A stretch of DNA of 32,000 nucleotides, from assembly GCA_048886185.1 (NCBI GenBank), contig JBHLKY010000014.1:90001-122000 (forward strand), given 5' to 3'. Of the stretch, positions 22,603 through 32,000 are shown piece by piece (the first letter of the stretch is position 1; every line of letters starts with the position of its first letter). The stretch is from Candidatus Hermodarchaeota archaeon (GTDB lineage: Archaea; Asgardarchaeota; Heimdallarchaeia; Hodarchaeales; Hodarchaeaceae). Made by a program: the position numbers and the translations under genes. The notes under the pieces are model-generated. The model saw nothing but the letters and a program-made list of their open reading frames with translations, searched no databases and was not told the DNA's origin.

Positions 22603-22712
22603 TTGGGGAATACAAAAATCCTTAAATCATTACATCTTTGATTATAAATCCCTGAGGTATGATTTATTTATTGAGATTGATGTTAAAAGAAAGTGATAGA
22701 AAGGGATCGAAC

Positions 22713-23606
22713 TTGAAGAAAGACTTTATTAGCCAATTAAAAAACCGTCGTGGAGTTTCTCCTGTTCTAGCGACTGTTATGATATTCGGTTTAATTATCA
22801 CTGGAGTCATGATCACTTTCGTTCAAGTTGTTCCATATATCCAACAGGCTCAAAGTGAGGAAGCGATAGCATCGGTACGGAATAGCTTTTTAGAGCTGGA
22901 TACTACTATAAAATCATTACTAAGTGAAAGTGGAGCGCCAGGAGGTTTTCGAACCATTCTATTCACTAAACCCTCCGGAGTCGTTCAATATGTTGAAGAT
23001 CGCTATTACATTTCCTTAAGATTACTTGATCAAGATAGTAATACAATATATAAAATACTGGATGAAAAGAAGATTGGAGTACTTGATTGGGTCTTCAATA
23101 GCCCTCGATCTGTCATTCCTAGAGGTACTACAAAATATTTAACTGGACCAGATCCCTATAGAAAACGAGAACCTGTTTTTTTAACAGGAACTTTTTCATC
23201 CACGGATTATCAAGACCTAACTAATTTAACATTAAGCCATCTTAATGACAAAAGGCATCATGTGACTCTCAATTACCGAATATCTATCTATTTAACAATT
23301 TCTACTCAACCAGAACCAGAAATTCGTTTTGAAGTCTTTTTAGTCTTAATTTCTTCAGATTTCGACTCATTTCATAGACAATATCAACAAATAACCATTC
23401 ATTCATATAACAATTTTTCCAGACCATATACTTTACCTGAAAATGACTCCATTGGGGCGATAGAATTAGTATGGGATAATATTAAAACTTCAGGGTCTAC
23501 AACCACATCCCTTTGGAGTACTCAATTGATTCAAGGATTTAATGTCCAATACTTTAATATTGTGGTACAAACACTGGTTTATGAAATAGGCCTCTCAATA
23601 TCTTAG
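22713..23606 (+). CDS. Archaeal type IV pilin-like protein with an archaellin/PibD-type class III signal peptide
   Basis: KNRRG|VSPVLATVMIFGLIITG (Gly at 22752-22754) followed by a hydrophobic helix and a soluble domain. Likely TTG start at 22713 (AAGGGA upstream); the ORF track starts at 22659. Confidence 0.85.
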   Translation: MKKDFISQLKNRRGVSPVLATVMIFGLIITGVMITFVQVVPYIQQAQSEEAIASVRNSFLELDTTIKSLLSESGAPGGFRTILFTKPSGVVQYVEDRYYISLRLLDQDSNTIYKILDEKKIGVLDWVFNSPRSVIPRGTTKYLTGPDPYRKREPVFLTGTFSSTDYQDLTNLTLSHLNDKRHHVTLNYRISIYLTISTQPEPEIRFEVFLVLISSDFDSFHRQYQQITIHSYNNFSRPYTLPENDSIGAIELVWDNIKTSGSTTTSLWSTQLIQGFNVQYFNIVVQTLVYEIGLSIS

Positions 23607-23629
23607 TGAAAATATGACTCTGGTCGATT

Positions 23630-24085
23630 GTGATGGCATCGCAATATATTACCTTTATGATTATCTTCATATTAGGTCTTAACTTGGTCATAATTACAAA
23701 CACAATGTTTTTGGGTTTGAATGATCAGTTTCAGGAGAATCTTGCAGAAGCTGAGATGATACAAATCTTAGATTTGATTCAGATGCAAATTATGCAAACA
23801 CTTCTTCTTCCTACAAAATTCAATCAGACAAGTATGCAAAAAATTGAATTACCAACCCTTTTGGGAAAAATGTTCAGATATACTATTGAAATTTCTAATT
23901 TAAGCAACAATCAGCTTATATTGCATGGTTTTTCCAATAATTTGAAGATTGATCAGGTGATAACTTTTTCTGTGGCCCCAAAGTACAATATTGAGATTTC
24001 TAAATCATCGTTTCAAAGTATAAACTCAATATTATCTTTATATATAGAGAAGAACTTGATTAACGTTATAATAAGCATATCTTAG
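23630..24085 (+). CDS. Pilin-like protein (N-terminal hydrophobic helix, long amphipathic helix, beta-rich C-terminus) without a visible basic leader
   Basis: QYITFMIIFILGLNLVIIT...AEAEMIQI...IELPTLLG..FRYTIEI, located in the pilus locus. Confidence 0.6.
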   Translation: MMASQYITFMIIFILGLNLVIITNTMFLGLNDQFQENLAEAEMIQILDLIQMQIMQTLLLPTKFNQTSMQKIELPTLLGKMFRYTIEISNLSNNQLILHGFSNNLKIDQVITFSVAPKYNIEISKSSFQSINSILSLYIEKNLINVIISIS

Positions 24086-24238
24086 ATCAAACAATCAATT
24101 AATATAGTAAAAAGTGCTCATTCACAATAGAAAAATCTAAAAAATTATGATCACTGAAAATTATTAAACTAGCAAAAGATCAAACACGAAAAAAAAATCA
24201 TAATTATTTTTAGGCTAAAAGTAAGGAGTAACAGATAA

Positions 24239-25747
24239 ATGGCAGAATCAAGCAGTCTAATTCGAGAAACATATCCTTTAATCCCCCCATTTAGTTATGC
24301 GTTGGTTGCAACTGATCCAGAAACCAAACAAACTAAATATACTGTTGTTGAAGTTCCACTAAGTACAAAAGAGAAAGATATATTGGATATGATAAAAAAT
24401 ATTCTCGAAGAAGAATTAGATGTAGATTTTAATGTACTTAAAAATCCTGAGATAGCACGTGATTACCTCCGATCTAAAGTAATTAGGATAGCTAAAGATT
24501 ATGGGCTAAAAATAGATGAAAAGACATTCGATAAGATTAATTACCACATTACTCGTGATTTTGTTGGATTCGGTCCAATAGATGCAATGTTGAAAGATCA
24601 TAATGTTGAAGATATCTCCTGTGATGGTGTTGGAATTCCTGTCTATATTTGGCATCGAAAGTTTGAAAGTATTCAAACAAATGTTAAGTTTGAGGAGGAG
24701 GACTTATTAAATGCCTTTATCATCAAATTAGCTCAACGAGCTGGACGACATATCAGTGTAGCCAGACCTCTACTTGATGCTGCATTACCAGATGGTTCTC
24801 GCCTTCAATTAACATATGGAAGAGAAGTTACTCAACGAGGAAGTACATTCACAATACGAAAATTCCGCTCTGATCCGTTAACAATCACTGATATGGTTAT
24901 TTTTAATACCATTGACGAAGATTTAGCTGCATTCTTATGGTACGTTTTGGAAAATAGGAATTCAGTTGTTATTTCAGGGGGAACAGCAGCAGGAAAAACT
25001 TCTTTGCTTAATAGTTTGGCTATGTTCATTAGACCAGGAATGAAAATCGTTTCCATCGAAGACACAGCAGAACTTCATCTTCCTCATGAGAATTGGATCC
25101 CTGCCGTGGCTCGTGAAGGTTATGGCGGACGTGAAGCTGATGGTTCTCGAAGAGGCGAAGTATCAATGTACGATCTCCTCCGTGCAGCCCTTCGGCAAAG
25201 ACCAGATTATCTTTTTGTGGGAGAAGTACGAGGCGCAGAAGCATACAATCTTTTTCAAGCAATGGCTACTGGCCACACTGGAATGGGAACAATACATGGT
25301 GACAGTGTAACTGGAACTATTAGACGATTAGAGAATGAACCAATGAATATTCCTCGAACACTAATTCAAACATTGAACTTTGTTCTTGTCCTTCGAAAAG
25401 TGCGTCGAGGAGACAAACAGGTTCGACGAGTAATTGAATGTACAGAAATTGTAGGAATTGACCCTGTAACTACTGAATTGATTACGAATAAAGTCTTTGG
25501 ATGGAATGCACGTGAGGATGCTTTTATCAATTATGGACGATCCTATGCACTTGAAGGAATTCAGGAAGCGCAAGGATTAACTGAAGCACAAGTATTTGAT
25601 GAGCTGGAACGGCGTAAAACAATTTTAAGATGGATGGTAAAAAAGAAGCTGGCTCATTTTACCCAAGTTTCTGAAGTAGTGAACAGTTATTATCAGAATG
25701 CACTTGAAACTGTTGATCGAGCAAAACGTGAATTAAAAGCTATTTAA
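24239..25747 (+). CDS. Type IV pilus / T2SS assembly ATPase (archaeal PilB/ArlI-like)
   Basis: EDISCDG, LDAALPDGSRLQ, TFTIRKF, Walker A GGTAAGKTS, Asp box SIEDTAE, LRQRPDY, Walker B VGEVRG and His box TGH...TIHG. Confidence 0.96.
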   Translation: MAESSSLIRETYPLIPPFSYALVATDPETKQTKYTVVEVPLSTKEKDILDMIKNILEEELDVDFNVLKNPEIARDYLRSKVIRIAKDYGLKIDEKTFDKINYHITRDFVGFGPIDAMLKDHNVEDISCDGVGIPVYIWHRKFESIQTNVKFEEEDLLNAFIIKLAQRAGRHISVARPLLDAALPDGSRLQLTYGREVTQRGSTFTIRKFRSDPLTITDMVIFNTIDEDLAAFLWYVLENRNSVVISGGTAAGKTSLLNSLAMFIRPGMKIVSIEDTAELHLPHENWIPAVAREGYGGREADGSRRGEVSMYDLLRAALRQRPDYLFVGEVRGAEAYNLFQAMATGHTGMGTIHGDSVTGTIRRLENEPMNIPRTLIQTLNFVLVLRKVRRGDKQVRRVIECTEIVGIDPVTTELITNKVFGWNAREDAFINYGRSYALEGIQEAQGLTEAQVFDELERRKTILRWMVKKKLAHFTQVSEVVNSYYQNALETVDRAKRELKAI

Positions 25748-25773
25748 GGAAGAATCGTTTGGAGTGTTTATTT

Positions 25774-26682
25774 GTGAGTAAGGTCATTAGAAGGGTCGGT
25801 TATCTCAGGTTTGGTAGATTATTAGAATCTTGGATTGAAAAGGGACGATTTGAAAGACTCAATAAAAGCCTGAAACGAGCAGGGATGGATATTTCAATCC
25901 GAGCTTATCTTGGGAGTGCAATTTTTAGTTCTATTCTTATTGGATTCTTATCATTTTTCGGGACAATTATTGGAAGTATTGTGCTTTTTCAAATTGCTGA
26001 TCCTACAATGCACTTACAAAGTTTCTTTATGCAACTTATTTTGATTGGACTGATTGTTGGAGTGCTTTTTTTCATCATAACATATGTACCATTCTTATAC
26101 TGGCCCCAAATGAAAGCTGCTGATCGTAAAATATTAATGGAGTCTGGTTTACCATCAACAGCATCGTATCTCTCTGCAATGTCAAGTTCAGGTGTTCCCC
26201 CTAATAGACTATTTTTTTCACTCGCAGGAGAAGCATCTGTTGCTCCTGAAATTTCCAAAGAGAGTAAAAGAATAACACGAGACATTCAGATTTTTGGGTA
26301 TGATATTCTAAAAGCTTTACGAACCGCCAGTGAAAGATCTCCCTCAGAAAGATTCTCCAAGTTTTTAGATGGAATGTCAGCTACTATCACAAGTGGAGGG
26401 GATCTAACTTTCTATCTTAGTGCTGAAGCTAAAGCCCTAATGAAATTAAAAGAGGAAGAAACTAAAGAATTTATTGATCAATTAGGGGTACTTGCTGAAA
26501 TTTTTATGATTATAGGAGTAGTTGCTCCCTTATTCTTTGTAGTAATAATAGCAATTCTAGCTGTCATTTCCCCAGAAACAATAATTGGAACGGTCATAAT
26601 GCTGCTTTTGACGTACTTAATTATGCCTATTCTATTAATGATAATGATTTTATTGATCTCAACTATTTCACGAGAAGTTTAG
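25774..26682 (+). CDS. Type IV pilus membrane platform protein (PilC/TadC/ArlJ-like, T2SSF domain)
   Basis: LPSTASYLSAMSSSG, RDIQIFGYDILKAL, SPSERFSKFLDGM...SGGDL..YL and C-terminal TM helices. Likely GTG start at 25774. Confidence 0.9.
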   Translation: MSKVIRRVGYLRFGRLLESWIEKGRFERLNKSLKRAGMDISIRAYLGSAIFSSILIGFLSFFGTIIGSIVLFQIADPTMHLQSFFMQLILIGLIVGVLFFIITYVPFLYWPQMKAADRKILMESGLPSTASYLSAMSSSGVPPNRLFFSLAGEASVAPEISKESKRITRDIQIFGYDILKALRTASERSPSERFSKFLDGMSATITSGGDLTFYLSAEAKALMKLKEEETKEFIDQLGVLAEIFMIIGVVAPLFFVVIIAILAVISPETIIGTVIMLLLTYLIMPILLMIMILLISTISREV

Positions 26683-26702
26683 ACGTCAAGAGGTTTAGAG
26701 TA

Positions 26703-27689
26703 ATGAGAAAACTGTCACCAAAACTCGAACAACGTATCTGGATTCTCTCAATATTTCTCTTCATAATTACAGCAGGAATTGCCTTATATTTTTACATACC
26801 CGTCATTGAACATATATTTCCAGTAACTAGCCCTTCTGATTTAGATCCCGAAGAATTGGAAAATTATCTTCATTCTGTGAGTGAAATCGTCAGAGATCCA
26901 ATCATTGGATTTTTTGACATCATAGATATAACAACAATATCTATTTTCACGCTGATTCTCATCCCAGCTTGGGCCTATCGCTCAGATCAAAGATGGCGAG
27001 ACAATATTGATGATAATATTCCCTCTTTATTACGTGAAATTTCTGATGCTCAAAAAACTGGTCTTCCATTACCAAGAGCAATTATGTCAGCAAGCAAGCA
27101 TAATTACGGCGCCTTGACGCCTGAATTGAAAAAAATGGCAGCTAAAATTAGTTGGGGGATTCCCTTCAGCAAATCCTTACAAAGTTTGACGCAAACAGCA
27201 GATACACCTATGATGAAACGAACATCTCTACTAATATTAGAAGCAGAGCGTTCTGGCGGGGCTATTGAAGACGTTTTTGAATCGGCTCACAAGCATGTGT
27301 CTGAAGTACTCGGATTAAAAAGAGAACGCCTTGGATCTATGAAGCCTTTTACTTGGATCATCTTCGCTTCCTTTATTGTCTTCTCCCTTGTAATGATTAT
27401 TCTACTTATTTCCTTTTTCCAAACATTAGCTGTCCAAATGGTAGATGCTGTTGCAGAAGGACAAGACCCAACTGCAGGATTACCATTTAACCTCGCTGGA
27501 TTACAGTTGATTTTTTTCCACTTAATGGTGATTGAAGCCATTTTTGCAGGTCTTATTGCAGGGAAAATGGGTCAAGGTAATTCAAAGCTTGGATTGCAAT
27601 ATTCTTGTATACTTCTAGCTATCTGCTATCTAATCTTTAAATTTACAATAACAGATATCATTTCACAAATATTTTCATTATTTGTATAA
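26703..27689 (+). CDS. Second type IV pilus membrane platform protein (T2SSF domain)
   Basis: IPSLLREISDAQKTGLPL..AI, YGALTPELKKM...ISWG and AERSGGAIEDV, plus C-terminal GLIAGKM...G. Confidence 0.9.
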   Translation: MRKLSPKLEQRIWILSIFLFIITAGIALYFYIPVIEHIFPVTSPSDLDPEELENYLHSVSEIVRDPIIGFFDIIDITTISIFTLILIPAWAYRSDQRWRDNIDDNIPSLLREISDAQKTGLPLPRAIMSASKHNYGALTPELKKMAAKISWGIPFSKSLQSLTQTADTPMMKRTSLLILEAERSGGAIEDVFESAHKHVSEVLGLKRERLGSMKPFTWIIFASFIVFSLVMIILLISFFQTLAVQMVDAVAEGQDPTAGLPFNLAGLQLIFFHLMVIEAIFAGLIAGKMGQGNSKLGLQYSCILLAICYLIFKFTITDIISQIFSLFV

Positions 27690-27711
27690 TAGTAATCAGA
27701 GGTTTAAAGTC

Positions 27712-28167
27712 ATGGGTAAAGAAGAAAAGATGCTTCAAGAGTTATTAGACAAAGTATCTACTCTAGAAGATAAACTTACTAATATGGAGTTTTTGATGGT
27801 ACAGGGCATGGGAACAGGGGGAGTAACTCCTATATCTCCAACGATGATGCCCTCTTCTACTCCAAAAACTGGCCCTGTTGAGATTGATTTGGCTCCTCTT
27901 GAAAATAGAATCTCTGAAATTGAAAATAATATCTCAGAAGTTATGAATAGGATTAATAGTTTAGCAGAGTTAACATCAGGATTAAAAACTGAAAAAACTC
28001 AGAAAGCTGACGAATTGATAACTCAAGCTACTTCTTTATTAGAAAAAGGCCTCCAGCTGACCGAATTAGAAACAACAATGCTTGAATTGAAAGATCGTAT
28101 TCAAGAGATAGTTATCCAACTTGAGGTTGCCAATGTTGGTTCTTCTACTGAGGATACTAATTCCTAG
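27712..28167 (+). CDS. Soluble coiled-coil protein of unknown function in the pilus operon
   Basis: Heptad segments LQELLDKVSTLEDKL and LENRISEIENNISEVMNRINSL separated by a G/P/T/S linker. Likely start ATG 27712 (GAGGT upstream). Confidence 0.75.
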   Translation: MGKEEKMLQELLDKVSTLEDKLTNMEFLMVQGMGTGGVTPISPTMMPSSTPKTGPVEIDLAPLENRISEIENNISEVMNRINSLAELTSGLKTEKTQKADELITQATSLLEKGLQLTELETTMLELKDRIQEIVIQLEVANVGSSTEDTNS

Positions 28168-28203
28168 TATGTTTAAATAGGAAATTAACAAAAGTGCACT
28201 GAA

Positions 28204-29364
28204 ATGTTTTTTTCAAGCTTTAAAAGAAGACGCCGTGGACAGATAAGAGCAATTGATTTCATGGTCAGTCTTTTTCTCTTTATACTTATGTTATCCCAAT
28301 TAATACTTATCATTTTTAATGTTCAATCTAGTATAAAGACTAGTACCATAAGAACCCTAGCTTATGAGGAATTTGACATTTTTGGTAGGCAAATCCTTTT
28401 TGAGGAAGGAGATTTAAACTGGGGTTATCGTCAACAACTTCCTTCGTCATTTGGACTTGCAGATTCCAATTCGCAGTCTTATCTGAGTTTAGATGGGGCA
28501 AAAATAGCCCGCCTTGTTACTCGTACTCCTTTGGAAATATATCTTGTTTCAGGATTCTACATGTATGATTATAAAACTCTTAAGGAAGCCATGAGTATAT
28601 CAGGTAAATATGACTTTCAATTGGGATTTTATCCCTTACTAAACTCAGAAATCTCTGTTTCAGATACAAATTTTGCTCAAGTTACCGTCACTAATTTTTA
28701 CAACACTCCTATTTCTAATGCTCGTGTTAATTTCTTTACCATTGATTTGACCAATGGAGAAGTGATTTCAGAAGGATCAACTTTAACGGACTCAAACGGG
28801 GAGACTGCACGTCAATTATCAAATCCTACCTTGAATATCCCAAATGGGGAGCATTTCGTCTTTATTATCGTTGAAAAAGGGCCTCTTTGGGGTATGAATT
28901 GGGGTTTTAATGATCCTGCCTCTGATGAGGTTTTCATTGGCTCATCCCTAAAAAATGCTATTTGGGGAGGAGGAATTAATTCATCCAGCCTATTGGTATC
29001 AGATAAACTGGGAGAGACGCCTGAAAACCATTTTATATCTATAATATATCAGGATAGTACATTAACTTATTCTAATAAAACGATAAACCTAAATAAGGCT
29101 GATGATGGGAATGAGACAATCACTATCCCCAATGAAGGCTTAGCTGCCTTTTTTAGTATTGCTAGAAATACAAATAATGAATATCATGTTGGAATAGGTT
29201 CATATCCTGCAATATTAGATCGTGATTCGGATAGTGGAGTATTTTATCATATCTTTGGAGATCTAACTGAAGGTAAAAGAGTTAAATCAATGCTATCAAA
29301 ACTCTATCCCATTATTGTCAGGGGAACTTTGATGGGTTGTCAATTAACCTTATGGAGCGAATAA
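28204..29364 (+). CDS. Minor pilin-like protein with an RG|Q class III signal peptide and an Ig-like domain
   Basis: KRRRRG|QIRAIDFMVSLFLF (Gly at 28237-28239); EEGDLNWG..FGLA; VTVTNFYNTPISNARV...TLTDSNGE (prealbumin/Ig-like pattern). Confidence 0.8.
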   Translation: MFFSSFKRRRRGQIRAIDFMVSLFLFILMLSQLILIIFNVQSSIKTSTIRTLAYEEFDIFGRQILFEEGDLNWGYRQQLPSSFGLADSNSQSYLSLDGAKIARLVTRTPLEIYLVSGFYMYDYKTLKEAMSISGKYDFQLGFYPLLNSEISVSDTNFAQVTVTNFYNTPISNARVNFFTIDLTNGEVISEGSTLTDSNGETARQLSNPTLNIPNGEHFVFIIVEKGPLWGMNWGFNDPASDEVFIGSSLKNAIWGGGINSSSLLVSDKLGETPENHFISIIYQDSTLTYSNKTINLNKADDGNETITIPNEGLAAFFSIARNTNNEYHVGIGSYPAILDRDSDSGVFYHIFGDLTEGKRVKSMLSKLYPIIVRGTLMGCQLTLWSE

Positions 29365-29368
29365 AAAG

Positions 29369-29881
29369 GTGAAAAAATGCCATAAAAGCGTCCATAGGGG
29401 ACAGCTTCAAATTGCAGAAACACTTGTTTCAGTATCTTTAATGTTAGTTCTCGCTATTCTATTGATTGGTGCTACAAATCAGCTAATGTCGTCATATTCA
29501 AATCCAACCAGTCTGGATCAGACAGCAACAGACATTATGATAGCTGCAGATGAGGCAGGGTTATTAAGACCTGTCATATATCTTTATGGTGACTCTAAAT
29601 ATCAGGTGGAGTATTCTTCCTATAGAAATCTGCTTGATGAATACATTTCTACTATAATTTCTGATAATGTTGACTACGCATTAGTTGCTCATGAAATTAT
29701 AAATGGTACAATTAAACTCGATTATTTCAGCCCTATTGGTTCCTCAACAGCCATTGTTGCACTCCAACAAAGAGGAGAGGCTGTAGTAGCGAACTACCAT
29801 TTAGGTTCCTTTACTTCAGCTACTTTTGGTCAGTATTTTTCTCAATTTCTTGTACAATTATATTTGTGGGAGAAATTCTAG
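29369..29881 (+). CDS. Minor pilin-like protein with an RG|Q class III signal peptide
   Basis: HRG|QLQIAETLVSVSLML (Gly at 29399-29401); LDQTATDIMIAADEAGLL; C-terminal VQLYLW. Confidence 0.8.
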   Translation: MKKCHKSVHRGQLQIAETLVSVSLMLVLAILLIGATNQLMSSYSNPTSLDQTATDIMIAADEAGLLRPVIYLYGDSKYQVEYSSYRNLLDEYISTIISDNVDYALVAHEIINGTIKLDYFSPIGSSTAIVALQQRGEAVVANYHLGSFTSATFGQYFSQFLVQLYLWEKF

Positions 29882-30601
29882 ATGAAGTTACCAGGATTGT
29901 TATACTCGAAAGGTCACAGAGGTCAAATGTTTATCTTGGCAACAATGCTGATAGCAGTCTATGTTGTCATGATGACAGCTGCTCTGATGAATCTTGGAGC
30001 TAATCGAATGGAGTTTGATAGGGAGACGTTAAGAGAACCTTATTTAGATTCAAAACGTGAAATTCAAAATTTCTTAGAATTAATTTTAGCAGAGCATAGT
30101 AAAAATGAAACCACAATAGTAAGTTCTAGTATTGCACAAAATAAGATTAAAGAATTCTTAATGGATATGAGGGAGGTTTATATCTCACGTGGGGTGAACT
30201 TAGAAGTGAATTTTAATACTGATAACTTCAATCTAATAGCAACACATTCTCCATATGCAAATGTCTCAAATGTAGGAGTTTATACTAGCGAGATTTATGC
30301 TGAATTTCGGTTAAAGTTAAGTTCAGTGTCATCCTCATTTATTATTGAAGAATATTTTTCAGTTATCTTTATTGGTCGTGTAGAGATCCAAGGCAGCAGT
30401 GTTCTGGTTCAGCAATCAAAAGGAGACCAGTTTGAATTTATTGAAGCAGCTTCAGTCTATATTTTTAATGCTACTGATAAAATTACTCCCTCTATTCGTC
30501 TAGATCGTACTGGTATCTATAATTTTGAAGATTTAATTGATCTGAACAATATAGGAATCCTTAATGTCACCTTGATGAATGGAGTACAAATTTTTTCGTG
30601 A
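29882..30601 (+). CDS. Minor pilin-like protein with an RG|Q class III signal peptide
   Basis: KGHRG|QMFILATMLIAVY (Gly at 29921-29923); starts immediately after the preceding stop codon. Confidence 0.78.
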   Translation: MKLPGLLYSKGHRGQMFILATMLIAVYVVMMTAALMNLGANRMEFDRETLREPYLDSKREIQNFLELILAEHSKNETTIVSSSIAQNKIKEFLMDMREVYISRGVNLEVNFNTDNFNLIATHSPYANVSNVGVYTSEIYAEFRLKLSSVSSSFIIEEYFSVIFIGRVEIQGSSVLVQQSKGDQFEFIEAASVYIFNATDKITPSIRLDRTGIYNFEDLIDLNNIGILNVTLMNGVQIFS

Positions 30602-30607
30602 GAAGAA

Positions 30608-32000
30608 ATGATTGAGAAAGAGTTTCAGGAGTACATCAAAAATCTGAAAAAGGATCTTGAAACTCAAGTTCAACTAGCCACACAAGCGCGAGGCTGTAAA
30701 TTAGATCCTCAAACCTCAATAGAGTCCAAACTTACGTTTAATTCAAGAGCAAAGATAGCTTCAATTCTGAAGATACCAAAATTAGAGGACTATCTCCCAA
30801 GAAATCTTTCTCATCATGAAAATCCTCTCCTTTTGGCAGCTGATATTGCCAAACAGATTGTTAATGGCCGTTTTGTGAAGAAATCTCGTGAAAATCTTAT
30901 ATTACTTGCATTACACAGTTCACTTGTTATTATCAGCCAAGGATTGATATCTGTTCCTCAAGAAAGCATCCCAAAAATCACAATTGGCTCTAAATCAAAT
31001 CATTTAACCATTTACTTCTCAAATACGATACGATATGCTACCGGAGAGACTATTGGTTTAATAATGTTAATTGCAGATTATATTAGGCAGGTTTTACATT
31101 TAAATCGATTTAATCCTTCACCCGATCTCATAAATAGGTATGTTGAAGAAATAGAAATTTATACAGCAATGAATGAGCATTTTTTAAATTTACGAATAGA
31201 TTTATTAAAATTTTTAGTTCAAAATATTGGAATCGAAATATCTGGAGAAGCATTCGAACGAATTGAGGTTCGGAGATATAGGAACTTACCTAATTTAACA
31301 AATAAATTGAGGATGGGAATGTGTGTTGCCTTTGAAAAAGTGATTGAAAGCATTAATTCAATTGCTTCTATTCGTTTTAAATCAGGCATCCCTGAATGGG
31401 ATTGGTTAAAAGGCCCCTTTGAAGCAATTAAAAGGGAAAAACACGAATTTGGGCTAAGGGAAGTACGCGGAACTCAACCTTTACTCTCAAAATCTAGGAA
31501 ACCTGGGGGGTTCAGATTAAGATATGGCTTTTCACGCAACACAAGCCAAGGCGCAGCAGGAATTCATCCTGTTACAATGTATCTTTCAGAAATGCTCTCT
31601 CCAGGCACAAGTATTGCGATAGATTTTATGGATCGGCCGATTACGGTTTTTCCTGTTTCAACCTTAACAGGTCCTTTAGTTGAATTAAAAGATGGTTCTA
31701 GCGAAAGGATTGAATCTATAAAGAGAATTCGTGAAATAGAGGACAAAATAGCTCAGATTTGGGAGATGGGAGACATTTTACTCTCTCCGGATGACATTCC
31801 AGCAACAGAAACTATTGAATTATCTGCTTGGACCGAAGAATGGTGGAGTCAAGAAATCAAACTTTCAATTGCCTCAACAAATTTATCAATTGAAACATTG
31901 GCAACCAGCTTGAATATTTCCTTTAAAAAGTTAGAAAGATTACTACGAGAACCCACACATTATCATCCCTCTCCAGAAACAGCTATTAAACTGAGTAATA
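30608..32000 (+). CDS. polC: DNA polymerase D large subunit (DP2) homologue, strongly divergent; N-terminal 464 aa, runs off the right edge
   Basis: Not in the ORF track. The frame is open from ATG 30608 to the edge. Retains ARG.KLDP, ADYIR, NRYVEEIEIY, EISGE, EWDWL, KPGGFRLRYGFSRNT, AAGIHPVTM, GPLVELKDGS, GDILL and EEWW in DP2 order, but several normally invariant motifs are altered. Confidence 0.88.
   Translation, partial: MIEKEFQEYIKNLKKDLETQVQLATQARGCKLDPQTSIESKLTFNSRAKIASILKIPKLEDYLPRNLSHHENPLLLAADIAKQIVNGRFVKKSRENLILLALHSSLVIISQGLISVPQESIPKITIGSKSNHLTIYFSNTIRYATGETIGLIMLIADYIRQVLHLNRFNPSPDLINRYVEEIEIYTAMNEHFLNLRIDLLKFLVQNIGIEISGEAFERIEVRRYRNLPNLTNKLRMGMCVAFEKVIESINSIASIRFKSGIPEWDWLKGPFEAIKREKHEFGLREVRGTQPLLSKSRKPGGFRLRYGFSRNTSQGAAGIHPVTMYLSEMLSPGTSIAIDFMDRPITVFPVSTLTGPLVELKDGSSERIESIKRIREIEDKIAQIWEMGDILLSPDDIPATETIELSAWTEEWWSQEIKLSIASTNLSIETLATSLNISFKKLERLLREPTHYHPSPETAIKLSN

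Follow-up and report, generated by a model that had tools for sequence, protein, structure and literature searches.

A DP2 gene with rewritten functional motifs

The stretch of DNA analysed here (the window, 32,000 nucleotides, G000:C14:90001-122000) belongs to a metagenome-assembled genome (MAG) of the archaeal order Hodarchaeales (Heimdallarchaeia, Asgard), 4.84 Mb in 75 contigs and 96% complete, and it ends inside the gene for DP2, the large subunit of DNA polymerase D (PolD). The open frame at 30608-31999 of the forward strand has zero stops and exits through the window end; it is the first part of a gene encoding 1107 amino acids (protein P0001; G000:C14:120608-123931, equal to L007:2609-5932), whose end would fall at position 33931 in window numbering. 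Within the window the frame matches Pfam PolC_DP2_N (E 2.5e-43) and PolC_DP2_central (E 2.3e-30), and the whole protein carries PolC_DP2_N, PolC_DP2_central and PolC_DP2_cat in this order, with 146, 243.8 and 258.6 bits against a gathering cut-off of 24.3 bits. Its top PDB match by HMMER is the DP2 of Pyrococcus abyssi (6hms_B, E 6.6e-161), with about 30% identity over the full length. The first-pass annotation, made from the letters of the window, had described an uninterrupted frame of 464 codons colinear with DP2, and this description is upheld by the complete gene.

P0001 scores below all 4 NCBIfam equivalog cut-offs for DP2: 787.3 against 1269 for NF003103, 678.4 against 702.15 for TIGR00354, 678.5 against 1791 for NF011302 and 580.7 against 1585 for NF011303. 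The canonical controls P0011 and P0025 clear the NF003103 and TIGR00354 cut-offs at 1420-1550 bits.

The same annotation had proposed that normally near-invariant DP2 motifs are replaced in this protein. We checked its consensus motifs against P. abyssi DP2, using an HMMER alignment, and against the canonical DP2s of 3 other Heimdallarchaeia families, and they were borne out. The motif positions given for IRYATGE (residues 141-147, 31028-31048), GGFRLRYGFSR (residues 300-310, 31505-31537) and GTSIAIDFMDR (residues 333-343, 31604-31636) are exact. One item in the list of replacements is weaker, as RYG[R/H]SR is not invariant in canonical DP2s and also varies within the clade of Hodarchaeales DP2s to which P0001 belongs. 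The replaced segments inside the window are collected in Table 1.

Table 1. Features of the window: the DP2 gene, its replaced motifs and the upstream operon
Feature	Position	Strand	Basis and remarks
DP2, 5' part	30608..32000	+	Codons 1-464 of the DP2 gene (1107 aa); ORF list, Pfam
Residues 110-121, SQGLISVPQESI replacing canonical TEGxxxAPxEGI	30935..30970	+	Alignments
Residues 139-148, NTIRYATGET, degenerate KH-like motif (canonical GPIRSAGGT, 'PIRxxGGT')	31022..31051	+	Alignments
Residues 236-238, MGM replacing canonical GG(A/S) of the LRGG motif	31313..31321	+	Alignment
Residues 288-291, GTQP replacing canonical (G/A)GRP	31469..31480	+	Alignment
Residues 333-344, GTSIAIDFMDRP, degenerate motif of the first double-psi beta-barrel (DPBB-1; canonical GTxxKTERPGKG)	31604..31639	+	HMMER alignment mapping
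Residues 388-402, GDILLSPDDIPATET replacing canonical GDxLxGFGEFxENNH	31769..31813	+	Alignments
Type IV pilus-like operon, co-directional with DP2	22659..30601	+	Pfam; 3' end 7 nt ahead of the DP2 start codon

Several of these replacements are shared by the whole clade. In the KH-like motif, which has a template-guiding role in PolD (PMC6355029), AGPIRSAGGT has become SNTIRYATGE, with G139N, P140T, G145T and T147E as the clade replacements. T110S and A116V in the segment of residues 110-121, G236M in the change from LRGG to LRMG, and G289T with R290Q in the (G/A)GRP motif are fixed clade-wide, whereas G120 and, in the segment where GEFxENNH has become DDIPATET, G395 are replaced by variable residues. 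The DPBB-1 motif is also variable within the clade; the basic residues K386, R389 and K392 of P. abyssi DP2, putatively involved in DNA binding (PMC4996933), correspond here to A337, F340 and R343. The structural motifs GGFRLRYG, GPLVELKDGS and EEWW are kept, as the annotation had also said. In the complete alignment, 153 columns show a conservation of 90% or more among 54 canonical DP2s; of these the clade keeps 100, has replaced 37 and shows a mixture at 16. The 37 replaced columns are located in functional motifs, 16 of them with a new conserved residue and 21 variable.

An asparagine in place of a mandatory catalytic aspartate

The annotation had placed the catalytic aspartate pair further C-terminal, outside the window, and the loop was indeed found at L007:5216-5236. 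There the canonical NCDGDED reads NCNGDID, so that D956 of P. abyssi is N872, while the equivalents of D958 and D960 are retained in the source genome as D874 and D876. In P. abyssi DP2, D956 and D958 are the 2 mandatory invariant aspartates, and mutagenesis has shown that they are required for polymerisation (PMC4996933). N872 is present in all clade members that still have the loop. The D958 equivalent is itself A, V or N in the congeners L021 and L023-L027 and in P0002 and P0007, and thus in a subclade with genes that are still intact and constrained.

Other functional motifs have also changed. Outside the window the GRPEK motif is rewritten from GARMGRPEKAKER to GLKIIRVEKDEPR and APHTS has become SPFSM, and inside it ERPGKG of DPBB-1 has become DFMDRP. 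Conserved basic residues of the polymerase side are lost as well (R103, K251, R290 and R868). The annotation had called the protein possibly inactive; with D956 replaced by Asn and the DPBB-1, GRPEK, APHTS and PIRxxGGT motifs rewritten, it is very probably inactive as a polymerase.

A single-copy gene under purifying selection

A second DP2 was not found in the source genome with P0001, Pfam DP2_N and DP2_central or, by tblastn, 3 canonical DP2s as queries. Weak PF24844 matches on contigs C24, C6 and C3 (E 0.008-0.27, 25-47 residues) were discarded as Zn-ribbon-like noise. Each congener with a match has one DP2, or one split across 2 contigs, and this includes the single-contig genomes G010 and G015.

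Full-length DP2 frames are intact in 18 congeneric species besides G015, with identities of 49-78%. Within the clade, dN/dS is 0.09-0.14 for pairs with dS of 0.36-1.4; as pairs with dS above 1 are near saturation, we relied mainly on those with dS of 0.36-0.95. Calculated by domain (N-terminal, central, 'catalytic' and C-terminal), the values are 0.06-0.19, and those of the catalytic domain are 0.065-0.10. DP2 is therefore not decaying in this clade, where it is under purifying selection throughout, and the intact gene described by the annotation has no stops in its 1107 amino acids and a dN/dS of about 0.1 in every domain.

In the DP2 of G015 (L015, G015:C1:2667766-2671077, reverse strand) an in-frame TGA replaces the codon that corresponds to G236 (LRM*MCV, GGA to TGA); it may stem from a mistake in sequencing or be a nonsense allele of this lineage.

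Order-wide distribution and phylogeny

All 21 readable DP2s from 24 species-level Hodarchaeales genomes are degenerate in the same way (19 congeners and 2 sister-family genomes), as are the metagenomic cluster representatives P0002 and P0004 (the latter with NGDVD, read by eye), and other Heimdallarchaeia families have a canonical DP2. For a broader view we took the 150 top-ranking cluster representatives out of 1.84 billion proteins, in 105 of which the loop could be read by a regular expression that misses intein-bearing or divergent ones. Among these 105, all those outside the clade keep DGDxD or DSDED except P0071, whose GGEVD is a possible false match of the expression. In a maximum-likelihood tree the degenerate DP2s form one group with SH-aLRT support of 100, on a stem of about 1 substitution per site that is the longest internal branch, and no canonical sister from Hodarchaeales genomes lies within it.

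The 2 sister-family DP2s, L052 (G023:C598) and L053 (G022:C220), are far more degenerate, with 23-37% identity. In L053 the loop reads NVFLGAV and the acidic loop is gone, while the Zn-III C-terminal domain (CTD) is still there. DP1, the small subunit of PolD, was not found in these 2 genomes (G022 and G023), which are fragmented and 80-85% complete, with the DP1 of the source genome or PF04042 as queries. In the canonical DP2s of other Heimdallarchaeia families (L031, L034-L037) the catalytic loop is interrupted by an intein directly behind RRN, giving frames of about 1640-1750 amino acids; no inteins were found in the sampled Hodarchaeales DP2s.

A retained fold and a predicted DP1 partner

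The AlphaFold (AF2) model of P0001 has a pLDDT of 88.4 and a pTM of 0.85, and a Foldseek search with this model gave a TM-score of 0.85 to P. abyssi DP2 from the holoenzymes 9f29_B, 8ppt_B and 6t8h_B. As modelled, the overall fold of PolD DP2 is retained, with its 2 double-psi beta-barrels, clamps, KH-like domain and CTD. The cysteines of the Zn modules are invariant, and a comparison of 28 sequences, degenerate and canonical, shows no variation in C1028, C1031, C1043 and C1046 or in R1036, R1037 and P1039. The last 3 form the RRxP motif of the Zn-III loop, which in P. abyssi inserts into the groove of the OB-PDE domains of DP1 (PMC6355029).

Co-folding of DP1 residues 125-538 with DP2 residues 940-1107 gave a score of 0.90, compared to 0.01 for the best of 3 controls, although PolD complexes have already been solved and the result is possibly the memory of the model. 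Of 80 solved complexes 58 attain the mark of 0.90, as do 2 of 110 mismatched pairs. The runs agreed in at least 82% of contacts, with a partner pLDDT of at least 67, and placed the interface at the Zn-III loop and its flanking helices. Binding of DP1 by the degenerate DP2 is a prediction supported by this model.

DP1 itself is single-copy (L050:1348-2961, reverse strand, equal to G000:C3:96340-97953), with a dN/dS of 0.14-0.21. Its nuclease site keeps 7 of 8 residues: D281, H283, D325, H372, H418, H481 and H483, which correspond to D360, H362, D404, H451, H497, H560 and H562 and whose roles have been described (PMC10721889). The sole change in the active site is the N450 equivalent, which is E371 here and Glu in all congeners aligned, the GNHD motif being GEHD in 18 of 19 congeners and GERD in the remaining one.

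The C-terminal end of DP2 is different. Canonical DP2s end in Q..L.(D/E)F(F/M/L), a PCNA-interacting (PIP) box of the Q-x-x-L-x-x-F-F type, which in Thermococcus DP2 is the motif that binds primase and PCNA. In P0001 this box is replaced and the tail ends in ...LLFEKGPRPTTLV, conserved across the clade as GPRPTTL[VLFI]. Of the C-terminal features that the annotation had wanted checked, the zinc-binding cysteines and the DP1-binding RRxP are therefore in place and the PIP box is not.

Family B polymerases as likely replicases

The source genome encodes 4 family B polymerases (PolBs). One is a PolB1-type enzyme that scores above its NCBIfam equivalog cut-off. Another, of 1453 amino acids (L084, G000:C16:65994-70352, forward strand), is a Pol epsilon-like 'B10' PolB, whose top PDB matches are Pol epsilon catalytic subunits (E 1e-56). 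Its exonuclease and polymerase motifs are intact, including FDIETD, DVTSMYPS and ELDTDG, and it further contains a Cys-rich insert, a Lys-rich tract that includes a PIP-like GLTSLF and, at its end, CxxC-x13-CxxC. Among 83 Heimdallarchaeia genomes, the Pol epsilon-like PolB was found in 22 of the 23 other Hodarchaeales genomes compared to 0 of 59 from other families, a co-occurrence with the degenerate DP2 that amounts to one clade-level phylogenetic event, not 22 independent ones, and carries no statistical weight.

Genomic neighbourhood

The operon upstream of DP2 encodes a PilB-like ATPase (24239-25747), 2 T2SSF/PilC-like proteins (25759-27689) and pilin-like ORFs with matches to DUF7261, DUF7262, DUF7288 or DUF7289. 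In every congener examined, DP2 lies between the last 2 pilin-like genes and a CBS-domain/Zn-ribbon gene downstream, and these pilin-like and CBS-domain flanks were not seen in other Heimdallarchaeia families. Beyond the DP2 and CBS-domain genes, a 683-aa ORF on the reverse strand (L007:6849-8900) resembles, by eye, an NFACT/RqcH-type ribosome quality-control protein. Among the runs in which the gene occurs no RNA run is listed; the carriers are sediment-metagenome DNA runs only, possibly from the source sample.

A polymerase-dead DP2 as a probable partner of DP1

We consider it probable that the DP2 of Hodarchaeales is dead as a polymerase and has been kept as a non-catalytic partner of DP1 while PolBs replicate the genome, a reading in which the loss of activity, the scaffold role and the identity of the replicase are each deduced. 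According to this proposal, DP2 would have lost its polymerase chemistry and template handling while purifying selection kept it as a folded protein; its Zn-III/helical CTD would clasp a DP1 with a nearly intact Mre11-like nuclease site; the DP1-DP2 pair would serve as a replisome scaffold and possibly also as an exonuclease module; and DNA synthesis would fall to the order-specific Pol epsilon-like PolB together with the PolB1-type enzyme. A scaffold role is plausible because PolD is known to form non-catalytic bridges in Thermococcus, where the DP2 C-terminus contacts primase and the DP1 N-terminus contacts GINS (PMC8096248, PMC9023282).

Several observations weigh against this proposal. The acidic D874 and D876 survive in the source genome and in most of the genus, and residual or altered catalysis may be conceivable, since both aspartates are still there and an Asn can ligate metal. 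The replacement of K392 by Arg is a conservative one, and several congeners still have Lys at the position of K386. The co-fold result may reflect likeness to the solved PolD complexes rather than binding, and the scaffold contacts of Thermococcus cannot be transferred unchanged because the PIP box is replaced. A yeast two-hybrid assay detected no contact between the CTD of a Hodarchaeal Pol epsilon-like PolB and DP1 (PMC12680538), and so nothing ties the DP1-DP2 pair to this polymerase. Finally, the genome in which no second DP2 was found is a MAG at 96% completeness.

That DP2 could instead still be the replicative polymerase, as a fast-evolving active orthologue using D874 and D876 with a remodelled DNA path, appears quite unlikely to us. 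In its favour, the genome has no other DP2 that our searches could find, purifying selection is strong in the catalytic domain as well, the modelled protein retains the 2-barrel fold along with the D958 and D960 equivalents, and DP1 still resembles a proofreading nuclease. However, the essential D956 (PMC4996933) is Asn in every member that has the loop, the D958 equivalent is lost in a subclade with intact, constrained genes, the acidic loop is missing altogether from one sister-family gene, 5 separate functional motifs have changed together, and outside the clade every loop-readable representative but P0071 keeps the first 2 aspartates. We regard as unlikely, too, that the pair no longer belongs to the replisome and acts on its own as a 3'-5' exonuclease or repair module, in which DP2 would only provide the Mre11-like nuclease of DP1 with a DNA clamp or a platform. 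The nuclease site with 7 of 8 residues intact and a Glu at the remaining position in every congener aligned, the conserved DP1-binding surface of DP2, the loss of the PIP tail that would bind PCNA and primase and the loss of the polymerase-side basic residues would all suit such a module, but selection acts on the whole 1107-aa architecture and not on the CTD alone, the change of N450 to E in DP1 has an uncertain effect on the nuclease, and the surroundings of the gene (pilus-like operon and CBS-domain gene) give no hint of repair.

The remaining explanations concern the gene itself. The first-pass annotation had considered it not the housekeeping PolD but a repurposed paralogue, which the degenerate motifs and a MAG of 75 contigs could accommodate. 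This label is wrong because the gene is the only DP2 in the genome and in closed congeneric genomes; with no second copy by any of the queries used, a single copy per congener and a clade that the longest internal branch sets apart and that includes no canonical sister from these genomes, a canonical DP2 beside it is scarcely credible. A decaying pseudogene or functionless relic, for which the lost active-site residues and the in-frame TGA of G015 could be invoked, is just as hard to sustain, and we rejected it given a dN/dS of about 0.1 and full-length frames in the 18 other congeneric species, to which the 16 canonical-invariant positions with new conserved residues and the confident structure model can be added. 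Of the findings that the annotation had named as telling against its own view, namely a sole DP2, retained catalytic aspartates or a frame broken by stops, only the sole DP2 was encountered.

In the archaea in which this was tested, PolD is the essential replicase. Its catalytic body is absent from eukaryotes, where only the C-terminal domain of DP2, carried by the PolB catalytic subunits, and DP1, in the form of the inactive B-subunits, have been kept. Hodarchaeales count among the nearest relatives of eukaryotes known in the archaea. The order would then represent an in-between state, with a constrained but chemically dead DP2 body, a nuclease-like DP1 and a Pol epsilon-like PolB. If the pair is a scaffold, the non-catalytic roles of PolD can outlast its polymerase activity, which would bear on how the eukaryotic holoenzymes of Pol alpha, delta and epsilon came together. 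By analogy, one might go further and see in the dead-DP2/DP1 pair a nuclease-competent module that tethers primase and CMG for the Pol epsilon-like PolB, as the C-terminal half of Pol2 and Dpb2 do in eukaryotes, and thus a living intermediate on the way from replication by PolD to replication by PolB, close to where eukaryotes arose; we offer this as a tentative and rather doubtful extension, and the Pol epsilon-like PolB of Hodarchaeales has neither a second, inactive PolB half nor a DP1-binding tail.

Comparison with known systems

The annotation had been aware of no described protein of this kind, which is outdated, since Kazlauskas et al. (2020, NAR 48:10142, PMC7544198, section 20, Fig. 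7, Suppl. Figs S15, S16) reported a 'Heimdall_B3/LC3-like' group without an active DP2. In that study DP1 was considered inactive in LC3 and possibly active in B3, a Zn-finger-tailed 'B10' PolB, sister to the N-terminal half of Pol epsilon, was found to co-occur, and it was proposed that the gain of B10 permitted the loss of DP2 activity (PMC7544198). The DP2 described here belongs to this kind by lineage (the LC3/B3 Heimdallarchaeota are now Hodarchaeales), by its motif loss, by the co-occurring B10 and by its order-restricted distribution. The earlier basis was 2 MAGs and one supplementary alignment; what is new is the order-wide set of 21 DP2s, the dN/dS values, the tally of kept and lost columns, the structure model and the co-fold with DP1, together with the nearly intact nuclease site of DP1, its change of N450 to E, the conserved replacement tail and the further-decayed sister family. 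Our literature search found no other paper stating that DP2 is inactive in this lineage, and later replisome surveys score PolD as present in Asgard archaea with the inactivation unmentioned (PMC12680538, PMC12770985), a score that overstates catalytic PolD for Hodarchaeales.

Compared to the canonical PolD DP2 of P. abyssi (PDB 6HMS, 6T8H, 8PPT), the protein is of the same length class, with its domains in the same order, about 30% identity and a closely matching model, and it keeps the Zn-I, Zn-II and Zn-III cysteines, KDGTxRF, GRIIG and the RRxP loop for DP1. It differs in having Asn for D956, in the rewritten DPBB-1 basic motif, GRPEK, APHTS, PIRxxGGT and PIP box, and in its NCBIfam scores below the cut-offs.

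The dead modules of eukaryotic replicases, which are the C-terminal PolB half of Pol2 in Pol epsilon and the PDE domains in the B-subunits, share with this system a conserved polymerase fold without catalysis and a partner of the DP1 family, and the CTD of DP2 is homologous to those of the eukaryotic PolB catalytic subunits (PMC7544198, PMC6355029). Unlike in eukaryotes, the dead module here is a 2-barrel DP2 and not a PolB, and DP1 keeps its nuclease residues whereas the B-subunits have lost all of them (PMC4996933). A link of the DP1-DP2 pair to CMG is at present hypothetical.

Finally, Aenigmatarchaeota and Baldrarchaeia, which have lost DP2 and kept DP1, resemble Hodarchaeales in that the catalysis of PolD is apparently dispensable given a PolB with its own exonuclease (PMC7544198, PMC12680538). 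In those lineages the CTD of DP2 has moved onto PolB and the remainder has been deleted, whereas Hodarchaeales keep the full body of DP2 next to an order-specific PolB whose Zn-finger tail is unrelated and showed no binding to DP1 in the two-hybrid assay.

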